Below are positions 3,050-9,351 of a DNA stretch of 9,351 bases, in pieces. Position 1 is the first letter of the stretch. Every line of letters starts with the position of its first letter. Under the pieces are notes generated by a model. That model was not told the DNA's origin, did no database searches, and worked only from the letters and a program-made list of their open reading frames with translations. Origin of the DNA: a virus (taxonomy: Duplodnaviria; Heunggongvirae; Uroviricota; Caudoviricetes); the IMG/VR virus record IMGVR_UViG_2713896779_000023; one strand, given 5' to 3'. Both the position numbers and the translations under genes were made by a program.

Positions 3050-3117
3050 CCAACAATATTCATGCCGGATTTCTTCCGGATGTTCGAGGGTAAAGTTCGG
3101 TATCAGAAGAGGTGAGT

Positions 3118-4185
3118 ATGGCTAATGCCTGGCTCAGATTGTGGCATGACATGCCAAATGACCCCAAGTGGCGAACGATTGCCAGGGTATCAGGACAGCC
3201 AATCGCAACAGTGATGGCAGTGTATATCCATCTTCTGGTGAGTGCGTCACGAAATGTCACGACATGTCACGGCGTGTCACTACGTGGTCACATTGATGTC
3301 ACGACGGAAGATTTAGCAAGTGCGCTTGATGTGACGGAAGACGTAATTGATTCAATTTTGCATGCAATGCAGGGGCGGGTTCTGGATGGTGACCTTATTT
3401 CCGGATGGGAAAAACGTCAGGTGCTGAAAGAGGACAATGGTAACGTTTCGCAAACGGCAAAATCCCCGGCAGAGCGCAAGAGAGCGCAGCGGGAGCGGGA
3501 AAAGCTGCGGAAACATAATGCTGATTGTCACGATGAGTCACGACGTGTCACGCATCTGTCACGACAAGTCACGACAGATAAAGATACAGATAAAGATACA
3601 GATAAAGATACAGATAAAGATACAGATACAGAATTAAACCCCACACATAACGCGCGCGAGAGTATTCCGACCAGTGAGTCGAATGGTGCGCCGTTGCAGA
3701 CAGCCGAACCTGAATACCTGGACGGCCTGAGCGAACCGATCGGGAAATTTCCGATGACTACTGTCTGGCAGCCGTCGCCGGATTTTCGACAACGGGCAGC
3801 AGTGTGGGGTATGGCTCTGCCTGAGCCGGAATTTACACCTGCTGAGCTTGCCGCATTCCGGGATTACTGGATGGCGGAGGGGAAGGTTTTCACGCAGGTT
3901 CAGTGGGAGCAGAAATTTGCCCGCCACGTGCAGCACGTCAGGGCACAGGTAAAACCAGTCAGCAAGGGGGGAAGCCATGCAGCATCAGGTGGCACGGCAT
4001 CACGGGCAGTTCAGGAAATCCGGGCTGCACGCGAACAGTGGGAACGTGACAACGGATTTATCAGCAACGGAAACGGCCTGGAAGCTGTGGGAGCTCATGG
4101 GGGAGGTGTATTCGAACCGCTGGACTCAGAAGAACGGGGCCGCACCTTCGAAGCTCTGGATTGCCCAGATTGGTGCGATGACTGA
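3118..4185 (+). CDS. replication initiator (lambda-O-like role) with internal iterons and a (DKDT)n linker
   Basis: GAGG at 3109-3112 lies 5 nt before ATG 3118. The gene sits immediately upstream of a P-like gene. It contains two clusters of about 10-bp-periodic GTCACGAC repeats and a 12-bp tandem repeat, an architecture like ori-lambda inside O. The N-terminal sequence is not obviously lambda O, so the family is uncertain. Confidence 0.7.
   Translation: MANAWLRLWHDMPNDPKWRTIARVSGQPIATVMAVYIHLLVSASRNVTTCHGVSLRGHIDVTTEDLASALDVTEDVIDSILHAMQGRVLDGDLISGWEKRQVLKEDNGNVSQTAKSPAERKRAQREREKLRKHNADCHDESRRVTHLSRQVTTDKDTDKDTDKDTDKDTDTELNPTHNARESIPTSESNGAPLQTAEPEYLDGLSEPIGKFPMTTVWQPSPDFRQRAAVWGMALPEPEFTPAELAAFRDYWMAEGKVFTQVQWEQKFARHVQHVRAQVKPVSKGGSHAASGGTASRAVQEIRAAREQWERDNGFISNGNGLEAVGAHGGGVFEPLDSEERGRTFEALDCPDWCDD
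3244..3308. repeat. iteron cluster 1: about 6 copies of (T)GTCACGAC-like motif at roughly 10-bp spacing
   Basis: cgtcacga 3245-3252, tgtcacgac 3255-3263, tgtcacgg 3265-3272, tgtcact 3275-3281, ggtcaca 3285-3291, tgtcacgac 3298-3306. Confidence 0.6.
3526..3576. repeat. iteron cluster 2: 5 copies of (T)GTCACGAC at 10-11-bp spacing; candidate replication origin
   Basis: tgtcacga 3527-3534, gtcacgac 3538-3545, tgtcacg 3547-3553, tgtcacgac 3557-3565, gtcacgac 3568-3575; immediately followed by an A-rich tandem repeat. Confidence 0.65.
3577..3630. repeat. perfect 12-bp tandem repeat GATAAAGATACA x4 plus a partial GATACA
   Basis: Read directly from the sequence; encodes DKDTDKDTDKDTDKDTDT inside the initiator gene. 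Confidence 0.9.
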
Positions 4186-6578: not shown

Positions 6579-7136
6579 ATGAGCACTATTACCAGAGAAC
6601 GCGCGGAGATTAAATCATACATCACAGGCTTCCTGAGCGACTCGGCGCACGATAACAAGTCTTCAGACAGCCTGCTGGCTAATGTGTTTCGTATCGCGCT
6701 GGCATCACTGGAAGCAGAGCCGATAGCAATGGTAGTGCCTGATGAAATGGATTTGCTTACCTGCCATCTCGACGGTGTAACTAAAACATATGCTGATGGC
6801 TGGAACGCCTGCCGCGTCGCCATGCTTCAGGCCGGAAACTTTCGGGAAAATAAGAATTCGTCAACCAACAATTTTCGGGAAATCTCGGAAACGTCAACCA
6901 GATCTCCGATAACTCTGGATGGCTGGATAAGCTGTACTGAGCGAATGCCTGAAAAGAGCCAGAACGTGCTTATTTCGATGAATATCGATAGCGAGGCTGG
7001 GCCATTAATATATTCCGCACGCTATCTCGGAGGCACGTTCCGGCGCGGAGGTATAGCAGTTAGTCCGGGTAATGATCTTAGGCAAGCAACCCACTGGATG
7101 TCGCGACCAGAACCGCCGCAGGAGGTGAATCAATGA
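6579..7136 (+). CDS. DUF551-like prophage protein (185 aa)
   Basis: C-terminal pattern DGWIS...ERMPEK...THWMSRPEPP matches my recollection of the DUF551 conserved region. AAGGA precedes the ATG. Contains an internal imperfect tandem duplication. Confidence 0.6.
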   Translation: MSTITRERAEIKSYITGFLSDSAHDNKSSDSLLANVFRIALASLEAEPIAMVVPDEMDLLTCHLDGVTKTYADGWNACRVAMLQAGNFRENKNSSTNNFREISETSTRSPITLDGWISCTERMPEKSQNVLISMNIDSEAGPLIYSARYLGGTFRRGGIAVSPGNDLRQATHWMSRPEPPQEVNQ

Positions 7137-7216
7137 CCTGGCCTGAAGCATTCACAACGGTAGGAATTGCGATGGCGGTGGCGCTGGTGGTGTATTCGAT
7201 TTGCCGCTGGGGATAA
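7133..7216 (+). CDS. candidate 27-aa hydrophobic micro-protein (MTWPEAFTTVGIAMAVALVVYSICRWG)
   Basis: ATG 7133-7135 overlaps the upstream stop TGA 7134-7136 (ATGA). Single hydrophobic helix. Below the ORF-track length cut-off. Confidence 0.35.
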   Translation: MTWPEAFTTVGIAMAVALVVYSICRWG

Positions 7217-7314
7217 AAACGGTTTGCGGGAAAAGGATAGTTAAGTAGAATTGCTGCGGGTGCTTGAGGCTATCTGCCTCGGGCATGAACACCAACGGCA
7301 GATAGAGAAAAGCC

Positions 7315-7364
7315 NNNNNNNNNNNNNNNNNNNNNNNNNNNNNNNNNNNNNNNNNNNNNNNNNN
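7315..7364. other. run of 50 N (masked or unresolved sequence)
   Basis: Literal n characters. Confidence 1.
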
Positions 7365-7606
7365 ATCGTCATCTGTTTAACCGTCATAGTGACGGCACTG
7401 GTAACGAGGAAAGACCTCTGCGAGGTGCGAATCCGAACCGGTCAGACGGAGGTCGCTGTCTTCGTAGACTACGAATCTGAGAAGTAAGAGACCAGGCGGG
7501 GGAGTAATCTCCCGCCACCTCTGATGTGTCAGGCATCCTCAACGCACCCGCGCTTTACCATACTGAAAATGCTGTTTGAATGTTCATCTCTGAAAGAGGA
7601 CTATGA

Positions 7607-7951
7607 ATGAAAAAGGTATTGATTGCAGCACTTATTTCCGGTGTGTCTTTTGGCGCTTTTGCACAGCAGGGTGGTTTCCAGGGGCCAGAAGCAGAGCGTT
7701 CAACAGTAGCGCAGGCAAAAGAACTGAAGGATGATGCATGGGTTATCCTTGAAGGGAGCATCGTTAAAAAAGTGGGTGATGAACGTTATGAGTTTCGTGA
7801 CAATAGCGGGACAATTGTCACGGATATTGATGACAGCGTATGGGCCGGGCAGAATGTTTCTCCGAAAGACAAAGTAAGAATTGAGGGTGAAATTGATAAA
7901 GACCTGAGCAGTGTTGAAGTTGATGTAAAGGCACTGAAATTATTAAAGTAA
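7607..7951 (+). CDS. YgiW/YdeI (BOF, bacterial OB-fold) family periplasmic protein; moron-like
   Basis: Signal peptide MKKVLIAALISGVSFGAFA followed by QQGGF. Family-typical motifs TVAQAKELKDDAWVILEGSIVKKVGDERYEFRDNSGTI and VRIEGEIDKD. AAAGAGGA precedes the ATG. Own terminator downstream. Confidence 0.8.
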   Translation: MKKVLIAALISGVSFGAFAQQGGFQGPEAERSTVAQAKELKDDAWVILEGSIVKKVGDERYEFRDNSGTIVTDIDDSVWAGQNVSPKDKVRIEGEIDKDLSSVEVDVKALKLLK

Positions 7952-7968
7952 CCGCCCCTGCTTGTTAA

Positions 7969-7998
7969 GCCCGTCTTACTGACGGGTTTTCTGTTTGT
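7969..7998 (+). terminator. rho-independent terminator
   Basis: Stem GCCCGTC (7969-7975), loop TTACT, stem GACGGGT (7981-7987), then TTTTCTGTTT; 18 nt after the stop of the BOF gene. Confidence 0.7.
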
Positions 7999-8072
7999 AC
8001 ATTCCGGCGTATTGCCTTACAATTCGCGCAGTCAGCCTGAACAACTGACACCTGCTGTCACCGGAGAATCCG

Positions 8073-8305
8073 ATGACACAACACATAAAATCCCACAATT
8101 CTGAAGCCGACCCGGAAATTAAGCAGGGGAGGCGTTTTCGTGCGCCTCAGTATGGCTGGTTTCACTATCTGTTCTGTACGATCGATGAGGCAGATATGCT
8201 TCAAGAGGCGTATCTGCGTCGCGGTGTCCGTGTGGAGCGGAGTCTGAACGCTGATCGTCTGACCTGGACCGTTTCTGTATATCTTCCTGTTCGTGCACAT
8301 CTGCC
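8073..8305 (+). CDS. N-terminal fragment of a CDS truncated by the N run; may be the start of the DUF968-like gene
   Basis: GGAG 6 nt before ATG 8073. Protein-like translation MTQHIKSHNSEADPEIKQGRRFRAPQYGWFHYLFCTIDEADMLQEAYLRRGVRVERSLNADRLTWTVSVYLPVRAHL up to the gap edge. Confidence 0.45.
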
Positions 8306-8355
8306 NNNNNNNNNNNNNNNNNNNNNNNNNNNNNNNNNNNNNNNNNNNNNNNNNN
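8306..8355. other. run of 50 N (masked or unresolved sequence)
   Basis: Literal n characters; the frame relation across it is undefined. Confidence 1.
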
Positions 8356-8356
8356 A

Positions 8357-9351
8357 GGTAATGTGCGGGTATTACTTCGACCTGTTCTGGTTCCGGAACT
8401 CGGGCTGGTGGTCCTTAAGCCCGGTCGTGAATCATTGCCAGTTTTTCATCGCGGCAGGGTGCTGGTGGAGCCGGAACCGAAAAACATGCGGGCGCTGCCA
8501 TCTGGAGCGGTTCCTGCTGTTCGCCAGCCGCTGGCGGAAGATAAATCACTGCTGCCATTTTTCAGCGATGAGCGGGTGATTCGTGCAGCTGGCGGCGCTG
8601 GTGCACTGTCTGACTGGTTATTACGTCACGTGAAATCCTGCCAGTGGCCACACGGCGATTATCATCACAGCGAAACCGTTATTCACAGTTACGGTGCTGG
8701 CGCAATGGTGTTGTGCTGGCACTGCGACAACCAGCTGCGCGACCAGACCTCCGAATCACTTGAGCAACTTACTCAACAAAATCTGACAGCCTGGATGATT
8801 GACGTCATACGCCATGTAATGAATGGCACGCAGGAGCGGGAATTATCGCTGGCTGAATTATCCTGGTGGGCAGTCTGCAATCAGGTGGTGGACGCATTAC
8901 CTGAGGCAGTATCGCGTCGTTCTCTGGGATTACCGGCGGAAAAAATCCGCTCCGTATACCGTGAAAGCGACATCATACCGGGAGAACAGACCGCCACCAG
9001 CATACTGAAGCAGCGCACAAAAAATATTGCGCTACCGCCTCACACCCACCAGCAACAGAACCCACCACAGGAAAAGACGGTGGTCAGCATTGCCGTTGAT
9101 CCGGAGTCTCCGGAATCCTTCATGAAACGACCTAAACGTCGCCGCTGGGTAAATGAGAAATACACACGCTGGGTAAAGACACAGCCGTGTGCGTGTTGTG
9201 GTAAGCCAGCGGACGATCCTCATCATCTGATTGGTCATGGTCAGGGTGGAATGGGAACAAAATCCCACGATATTTTCACGCTACCGCTGTGTCGGGAGCA
9301 TCACAACGAGCTTCATGCGGATCCGCTGGCGTTCGAAGAAAAGCATGGTTC
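8357..9351 (+). CDS. DUF968-like protein with C-terminal Cys/His (HNH-like) motif; partial at both ends (gap upstream, window end downstream)
   Basis: Hand translation of the frame starting at 8357 is stop-free to the window end and ends ...RPKRRRWVNEKYTRWVKTQPCACCGKPADDPHHLIGHGQGGMGTKSHDIFTLPLCREHHNELHADPLAFEEKHG. It is missing from the ORF track because it has no in-window stop. The track ORF 8073..8579 continues in the wrong frame after the gap. Confidence 0.7.

Follow-up and report, generated by a model that had tools for sequence, protein, structure and literature searches.

A predicted periplasmic OB-fold gene of the BOF family lies inside a hok/sok unit of an Escherichia coli lambdoid prophage and may be transcribed from the hok promoter

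The window analysed here is a stretch of 9,351 nucleotides of viral DNA (Caudoviricetes; IMG/VR record IMGVR_UViG_2713896779_000023), and its positions 7365-7998 carry the 3' part of a hok toxin gene followed by a gene for a protein of the YgiW/YdeI (BOF) family. This BOF gene is linked to hok without an intervening terminator, lies within insertion boundaries that were located by alignment, encodes a family member with an OB fold and evolves under purifying selection, and its product is made and exported. We consider it moderately probable that the gene is a periplasmic OB-fold cargo inside the hok/sok unit, transcribed from the hok promoter, with its product exported by the Sec pathway, and that the block as a whole is mobile. 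According to this proposal, the BOF open reading frame (ORF) and its 55-nt leader would be lodged between the fold-back inhibition (fbi) element of the hok mRNA and the site of the hok terminator. Transcripts from the constitutive hok promoter should carry the BOF ORF, because no recognisable intrinsic terminator precedes 7967-7998, and would run on to that point. Ribosomes would then start on BOF at its own conserved Shine-Dalgarno sequence, and Sec would export the product. The hok promoter would thus be the likeliest source of BOF transcripts in lysogens. Once the prophage is induced, further BOF transcripts would come from antiterminated early transcription, by read-through from pR in the present nin context and by read-through from pL across attP in phage 933W. 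The hok/sok-BOF block of about 0.8 kb would move among phages, phage-plasmids and one chromosomal site.

The immediate upstream neighbour of the BOF gene is a hok/sok toxin-antitoxin locus (Table 1). The initial annotation had placed the gene between replication and nin-type genes; the setting is indeed the nin region of a lambdoid prophage, but the direct neighbour on the 5' side is hok/sok, and the position 7520, at which the feature had been made to start, is part of the 3' tail of the hok mRNA. The sok antisense region runs on from the hok leader into a run of N, under which lie the sok promoter, the start of mok and the start codon of hok. Because the 50 N replace 145 nt, the apparent 78-aa 'hok' ORF at 7251-7487 is an artefact, and the coordinates on either side of the run are off by 95 nt compared with the real locus. 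The N-runs of the record are not length-true; further runs are listed near 1400-1450 and 8300-8350. In identical genomes, the full Hok protein has 51 aa (RefSeq Hok/Gef family protein WP_000813258.1), and the Rfam model RF01794 gave a full match of 113.5 bits on the unmasked identical locus (L001). The tac sequence agrees with the primers YO-349 and YO-351 of Takada et al., who used GCGGGTGCTTGAGG as the 5' end of the hokW mRNA (PMC8621323). The reverse complement of the fbi element matched tac except for one bulged base, and fbi was the same in all alleles compared. It is already known that these two ends, tac and fbi, keep the full-length hok mRNA locked (PMC9841398). Judged by the Hok peptide, the sok/hok leader RNA and the complementary tac and fbi elements, the locus is a hok/sok unit of the type I toxin-antitoxin class. 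The hairpin in the 3' untranslated region (UTR) of hok shows paired changes between alleles (GGCGAGGGAG...CTCCCTCGCC), and by analogy with the hok literature (PMC9841398) it would be the expected stop point of the 3' trimming of the hok mRNA.

The linkage of hok and BOF was analysed in loci from IMG/VR, public assemblies and one plasmid, which cover three allelic lineages with dS up to 0.55. In all 52 loci with upstream sequence, fbi was located 53-55 nt 5' of the BOF ATG with no terminator in between, and none of these 52 loci had the BOF gene without hok. These results suggest that the mobile unit is hok/sok together with BOF, and not BOF alone.

The segment that carries BOF was delimited against hok loci in which BOF is absent. 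In pairwise alignments, homology with two such loci (L008 and L009) was kept to 7559 and resumed at 7983; a multiple alignment was made as well. The segment between these points showed 43.7% GC and a GC3 of 0.377, and the flanks showed 50-57% GC and a GC3 of 0.52-0.62. The resumption at 7983 corresponds to the 3' arm of the terminator (CGGG) plus the T-tract, which aligned with the hok terminator of the BOF-less loci. L008, L009 and a third locus, L114, have the same nin flanks, with hok, a 90-aa gene and DUF968 in this order and without BOF. L008 and L009 carry CCCGCTTCGGCGGGTTTTGTTTTTT 4 nt after fbi, L114 carries a degenerate version of that hairpin, and all three run on into the same TTACAAT sequence and the 90-aa gene.

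The terminator that closes the BOF gene has a stem of 9 bp (7967-7975 with 7981-7989), followed by TTTTCTGTTTGT up to 7998. The free energy of the hairpin was -14.3 kcal/mol (z = -2.9), and the hairpin was kept in 53 of 53 related loci with downstream sequence. As a class, terminator-like hits were no commoner in the region than in shuffled sequence (3 hits, with 2.5 expected), and the support for this terminator therefore comes from its conservation and position, not from the scan. Terminators were also surveyed in a sample of 118 hok loci of viral contigs having the same fbi 20-mer. The hok terminator CCCGCTTCGGCGGG with its T-tract was located 3-6 nt past fbi in 95 of the 118 loci, whatever followed downstream, and was degenerate or had a short loop insertion in 15. 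In the other 8 loci, BOF was present at 55 nt past fbi with nothing terminator-like between. The terminator of the window lies 415 nt past fbi, beyond the BOF ORF, and not directly after fbi. The terminator of the BOF gene is thus, by position, that of the hok unit, with the 3' arm and the T-tract in common. The proposal that BOF has an intrinsic terminator of its own was only partly borne out: a hairpin with a T-tract follows the gene directly, but its position, 3' arm and T-tract are those of the hok terminator.

In some IMG/VR hok loci (L137 and L179), a UUCG-loop terminator with 25-35 nt inserted within the hairpin was seen just past fbi, e.g. CCCGC-CCATCGCTGTGATCTCTCAGCGTT-TCGGCGGG. The hairpin of the hok terminator may be a place where insertions recur, the BOF segment being another case. 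A stronger form of the proposal holds that BOF was captured within the hok terminator hairpin, and that BOF depends on the long-lived, folded full-length hok mRNA for its expression and its decay; we put this forward tentatively, as a possibility that has less in its favour than transcription from the hok promoter as such. A promoter-like site, TGTACA / 16 nt / TACAAT, lies right after the terminator at 7996-8023 (+), and its TACAAT hexamer and the sequence past it are kept in BOF-less relatives. This site could restart transcription into the 90-aa gene, DUF968 and RusA.

A promoter of BOF itself was searched for between hok and BOF. No sigma-70-like promoter with at least 8 of 12 matches was found in 7488-7606 in three alleles, either by a consensus scan or by a relaxed scan. 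The best match in this interval was 7 of 12, and the candidate hexamers differed between alleles. An extended -10 sequence, TGTTAATTT, is present in two alleles and destroyed in this one, and it was rejected as a conserved BOF promoter. An antisense promoter-like site with 10 of 12 matches (7968 to 7939, minus strand; TTAACA / 18 nt / AATAAT) is directed into the 3' end of the BOF ORF. The other alleles do not have its -35 hexamer, and the site is probably due to chance. Pairing of the BOF Shine-Dalgarno sequence with CCUCU in the hok 3' tail, seen in the minimum free energy (MFE) fold, was also rejected, with a z of -1.04 and an adjoining helix that is not conserved.

The initial annotation had described BOF as an autonomous moron, that is, a lysogenic-conversion gene with its own promoter and terminator, expressed from the repressed prophage independently of its neighbours. 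Several observations agree with this explanation: the presence or absence of the gene between conserved flanks, its low GC and GC3, the conserved Shine-Dalgarno sequence and hairpin, the purifying selection, and the detection of the protein in cultures of enterohaemorrhagic E. coli (EHEC). We nevertheless regard it as unlikely, since the best upstream match of 7 of 12 is not conserved between alleles, BOF begins only 55 nt from the fbi of hok and was never found without hok in 52 loci, and the terminator has its position, 3' arm and T-tract in common with that of hok. The word moron is apt for BOF as far as presence or absence and composition are concerned, as the gene is extra relative to BOF-less relatives and low in GC. 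It does not appear to apply in the sense of a gene with its own promoter, the gene being fbi-linked in 52 of 52 loci and no promoter above 7 of 12 having been found.

The membership of the protein in the YgiW/YdeI (BOF) family was confirmed by profile searches. The E value against Pfam PF04076 was 1.9e-33 (115.1 bits; cut-off 25.8), and the scores were 136.8 bits against NCBIfam NF033674 (cut-off 35) and 112.3 bits against TIGR00156 (cut-off 108.15). The threshold of the YdeI equivalog model NF007471 was missed (64.8 bits vs 179). By these scores, the phage BOF protein is a member of the family and not a YdeI orthologue. RefSeq names it a 'NirD/YgiW/YdeI family stress tolerance protein'. The solved structure of E. 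coli YgiW (PDB 1NNX) aligned with the protein at an E value of 3.5e-29. An AlphaFold2 model, for which 14 homologues were in the alignment, had pLDDT >90 over residues 31-114 and contained five strands (45-57, 60-65, 68-73, 89-98 and 103-113). The top Foldseek match of the model was YgiW 1NNX (E 1.9e-11; TM-score 0.91, target-normalised). The model therefore predicts a single OB-fold domain, a five-strand barrel.

The N-terminus of the protein aligned with the signal peptides of family members. The predicted signal peptide, MKKVLIAALISGVSFGAFA followed by QQ, contains two lysines and a hydrophobic core of 16 residues (mean Kyte-Doolittle 2.21), together with the cleavage motif AFA, cut before QQ. 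The mature protein of 95 aa contains 20 D+E vs 14 K+R and is without cysteine. A lipoprotein reading was rejected, as this allele has no cysteine and the cysteine of the other alleles lies in a poor lipobox. The protein is predicted to carry a Sec-type signal peptide and to be located in the periplasm. The description of the product as a secreted OB-fold protein was supported by the signal peptide prediction, by the match of the AlphaFold2 model to 1NNX, and by the presence of Z1498, the EDL933 counterpart, in EHEC supernatant. The Shine-Dalgarno sequence had been called strong, which was borne out; it is also conserved, with GAAGAGGAC around it unchanged in all alleles compared. A second ATG at 7603 is in a different frame from the BOF ORF and is not kept in other alleles. 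The dN/dS value of the BOF gene was 0.17-0.25 between the allelic lineages, which indicates purifying selection.

Table 1. Coordinates of the features of the hok/sok-BOF block in the window
Feature	Position	Strand	Remarks
Small ORF, 27-aa hydrophobic single-helix peptide MTWPEAFTTVGIAMAVALVVYSICRWG	7133-7216	+	Overlaps the DUF551 stop, just 5' of the hok promoter
Candidate hok promoter, TTGCGG / 16 nt spacer / TAGAAT	7224-7251	+	Putative, read from the sequence; ends 4 nt before the hok mRNA 5' sequence
hok mRNA 5' leader with tac element GCGGGTGCTTGAGG at 7256-7269	7256-7314	+	Rfam RF01794 partial match 7260-7314
Run of 50 N	7315-7364	.	145 nt in identical genomes (L001 positions 8855-8999)
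Visible 3' part of hok (hokW-type) toxin coding sequence	7365-7487	+	Pfam PF01848 Hok/Gef, E 1.2e-20; PHROG 251
hok 3' UTR hairpin GGCGGGGGA GTAA TCTCCCGCC	7495-7516	+	Fold; paired changes between alleles
hok fbi element CCTCAACGCACCCGC	7537-7551	+	Complementary to tac, one bulged base
Segment absent from BOF-less hok loci: leader, BOF ORF, 5' half of terminator	7560-7982	+	Alignments, composition
Shine-Dalgarno sequence AAGAGGA of the BOF gene	7594-7600	+	6-7 nt 5' of the ATG at 7607
BOF (YgiW/YdeI family) gene	7607-7951	+	114 aa; RefSeq WP_000756596.1
Predicted Sec signal peptide, codons 1-19	7607-7663	+	Mature part is a 95-aa acidic OB-fold domain
Intrinsic terminator AAGCCCGTC TTACT GACGGGTTT then TCTGTTTGT	7967-7998	+	Ends the cassette and the block shared with 933W

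The block at 7365-7998 showed 98% nucleotide identity with phage 933W, and the BOF protein differed by one residue (V78I). The 933W annotation gives sokW, mokW, hokW and L0136 ('similar to hypothetical YgiW and YdeI proteins'), and the same block is present in VT2-Sakai/Sp5 as ECs1245 and ECs1244 (H0152). The 933W allele is UniProt A0A4P8BAV1, and through this accession it was linked to Z1498 of EDL933. The block in common with 933W extends from 7118 to 7998, where the 933W homology stops, and the block in common with the chromosomal allele extends from 7211 to the hairpin. Three allelic BOF lineages were distinguished, with 81-83% amino-acid identity and dS of 0.33-0.55. Of 5426 complete E. 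coli genomes, 549 carry the full BOF gene. The gene is not new: it has been catalogued before and is widespread among Shiga-toxin-producing E. coli (STEC). The new detail would be the architecture, in which BOF appears as a cargo of the hok/sok unit that replaces the 5' half of the terminator of the unit.

The cassette was found in at least five settings. The first is the nin region, as in the window and in L007, and the second is near attR of 933W-like Stx phages, on the int strand; variants of both arrangements also occur. A further setting is a chromosomal site between the cytochrome c peroxidase gene and mrp-metG, where no phage genes were called in the 8.3-kb locus, and another is an IncY phage-plasmid, where the cassette lies between IS5 and IS1. 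The chromosomal allele (L003-L006) had no high-identity copy in complete E. coli genomes. In species-representative genomes, only chromosomal BOF relatives were found, with identities of 51% or less. From these distributions, the phage BOF clade appears to be limited, in the data searched, to mobile elements of E. coli. In PLSDB, BOF-family genes of less than 60% identity were found on 1089 plasmid records (1118 matching records in all), mainly from Salmonella and Klebsiella and mostly conjugative, which suggests that the BOF family is commonly mobile outside phages.

Published data on expression are available for the EDL933 and Sp5 copies. In a 2026 secretome study, Z1498 was detected in the culture supernatant of EDL933 and was scored as SignalP SPI (PMC12962677). 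Because of this detection, we conclude that the BOF protein is made and leaves the cytoplasm in EHEC. In the same study, Z1498 was among the ten most reduced supernatant proteins of a type II secretion system (T2SS) mutant, alongside the known substrate StcE, and was up in a type III secretion system (T3SS) mutant with epithelial cells present (PMC12962677). The reduction in the T2SS mutant may reflect T2SS-dependent release or only changed periplasmic leakage. As for the toxin, Sp5 lysogens contain hokW mRNA before they are induced, and it is stable afterwards (PMC8621323). Among the homologues, YgiW and Vibrio SipA are required for survival of H2O2 and cadmium, the porin or outer membrane protein (OMP) partners are OmpF for YgiW, OmpD for YdeI and OmpA for SipA, and SipA binds antimicrobial peptides (PMC6370654). 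By analogy, the phage BOF protein may have a role in tolerance to stress or antimicrobial peptides.

Several points weigh against transcription from the hok promoter and against a tolerance role in lysogens. The 3' region of hok or the 55-nt leader may contain a weak promoter, or one read by a non-sigma-70 (alternative) sigma factor; the literature on L0136, ECs1244/ECs1245 and mokW yielded no transcript map of the locus. The hok mRNA is tightly folded, and a 3' extension of 440 nt might be cleaved or terminated by Rho, a concern that is reduced by the translation of the BOF ORF and by the shortness of the leader. Stx2B and 933W tail proteins were found in the same EDL933 supernatants (PMC12962677), and the detected Z1498 may therefore stem from a spontaneously induced subpopulation. 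Finally, the phage BOF protein has 50-60% identity to the characterised homologues and is without the linker of about 14-18 residues that follows their signal peptide, and for these reasons its function may differ from theirs.

The co-occurrence with Stx2B and tail proteins (PMC12962677) also agrees with BOF being a lytic-cycle gene, transcribed from antiterminated early operons after induction and acting on the envelope of the dying or infected cell. The BOF gene of the window lies in the pR-driven nin region, and that of 933W lies on the int strand by attR, where excision is needed before it forms the distal end of the pL operon. HokW makes lysis start earlier and raises phage release twofold (PMC8621323), and homologues of BOF bind porins (PMC6370654), so that variants of this explanation are a function in lysis timing with HokW or the binding of porins for exclusion of superinfecting phage. 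We consider a mainly lytic-cycle role improbable. The cassette is kept under purifying selection at the chromosomal site, on the IncY plasmid and in prophages disrupted by IS elements, and a lytic role fits poorly with these sites because lytic functions would be useless there.

The hok-BOF linkage is invariant across lineages and contexts, and all BOF-linked Hok peptides in the sampled hok loci are of one C-terminal type (...VFVDYESEK). It is nevertheless very unlikely that BOF buffers or potentiates the damage by Hok from the periplasm as the third part of a hok/sok-BOF system, since the same Hok type occurs without BOF in L114, L165 and L197, about 90% of the sampled hok loci are without BOF, a hokW-sokW clone that ends at BOF codon 11 (primers YO-432 and YO-433) is a complete toxin-antitoxin pair (PMC8621323), and an ORF inserted within the unit would be linked to hok in any case.

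A lambdoid prophage of STEC O121:H19 strains, e.g. RM8352, matched the window with 100% identity. No stx gene is annotated in the prophage stretch that begins with int, passes the lysis genes and reaches the terminase genes. The prophage contains dicB, a YdaT-like gene, a DnaT-like initiator and a P-like protein, and the gene order around the block is DUF1627, DUF4014, DUF551, hok, BOF, the 90-aa gene, DUF968, RusA and DUF1133. IS elements are located beside int and xis, in the arm between xis and the exonuclease gene. In the RM8352 prophage (L203, 4615-8655), an IS3-family element abuts or slightly overlaps xis, a copy of IS600 adjoins, and the annotation gives the product of the cI-like gene as a short protein of the LexA family. 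The O121 source prophage may be defective, in which case lysogenic expression would be the only relevant mode for its accessory genes. The DnaT-like replication initiator (3112-4185, +) contains TDKD repeats, with a 12-nt tandem repeat around 3590-3640, and this repeat DNA is reminiscent of the origin iterons inside lambdoid O genes. The small hydrophobic ORF upstream of the hok promoter is within the block in common with 933W and is left unannotated by RefSeq for this allele; its 27-aa peptide had no PHROG match. An unrelated 34-aa hydrophobic ORF occupies the same place in other cassette alleles (L003, L007 and the IncY plasmid).

If BOF is driven by the hok promoter, a toxin-antitoxin unit on Stx2a and other lambdoid prophages would deliver an exported envelope protein to every lysogen, and BOF would become a candidate gene through which prophages make STEC tolerant to antimicrobial peptides or oxidants. 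In the hokW-sokW::kan deletion of Takada et al. (primers YO-351 and YO-352), the hok promoter is gone and BOF is left behind the resistance cassette (PMC8621323); BOF expression may be altered in this mutant. In an Irish case-control genome-wide association study (GWAS), 'ygiW_2' and 'group_5720' (mokC-like) were associated with haemolytic uraemic syndrome (HUS) and were treated as two interacting genes (PMC11950266). This pair very probably corresponds to the two adjacent cassette genes on Stx2a phages, and the signal may for this reason be one of phage linkage. Transcription from the hok promoter would thus call for caution with the phenotypes of hokW-sokW deletions (PMC8621323) and with a GWAS that lists adjacent genes as independent (PMC11950266). 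If BOF was in fact captured within the hok terminator hairpin, a type I toxin mRNA would double as a constitutive messenger for an exported host-fitness protein, and the 440-nt extension would alter the 3' trimming by which Hok is activated and so retune the killing after induction. The hokW-sokW::kan phenotypes and the HUS association may then partly reflect the BOF protein, which may even leave the cell in a T2SS-dependent manner.

The closest known counterparts are L0136 of 933W, ECs1244 of Sp5 and Z1498, which are the same gene with the same hokW neighbour, 55-nt spacer and terminator. The cassette of 933W lies by attR on the int strand, whereas that of the window lies in the nin region of a prophage with no stx annotated. 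YgiW (1NNX), Salmonella YdeI/OmdA and Vibrio cholerae SipA resemble the phage BOF protein in their PF04076/TIGR00156 membership, the five-strand OB fold, the Sec signal peptide and the motifs GGFxGP...DDxWV...YxFRD...GExDKD. The phage protein has 114 aa and the homologues 127-134 aa, the difference being due to the missing linker after the signal peptide. YgiW, YdeI and SipA are chromosomal and have their own stress-responsive regulation, whereas the phage BOF gene is embedded in the hok unit. The term moron is used here in the sense of Hendrix and Juhala, with lom and bor of lambda and the morons of HK97 as examples. Lambdoid morons are like BOF in that an extra low-GC gene, followed by a terminator, lies between conserved neighbours and encodes an envelope protein of possible benefit to the host. 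In contrast to them, BOF is without a recognisable promoter of its own and is a passenger inside another accessory unit. The upstream part of the block is like hokW-sokW, hokD/relF and hok/sok of R1, with a 51-aa Hok, a leader match, the tac-fbi pair and a 3' UTR hairpin. Canonical hok loci have a UUCG-loop terminator 3-6 nt past fbi, whereas here the distance is about 420 nt, with a translated ORF in between.

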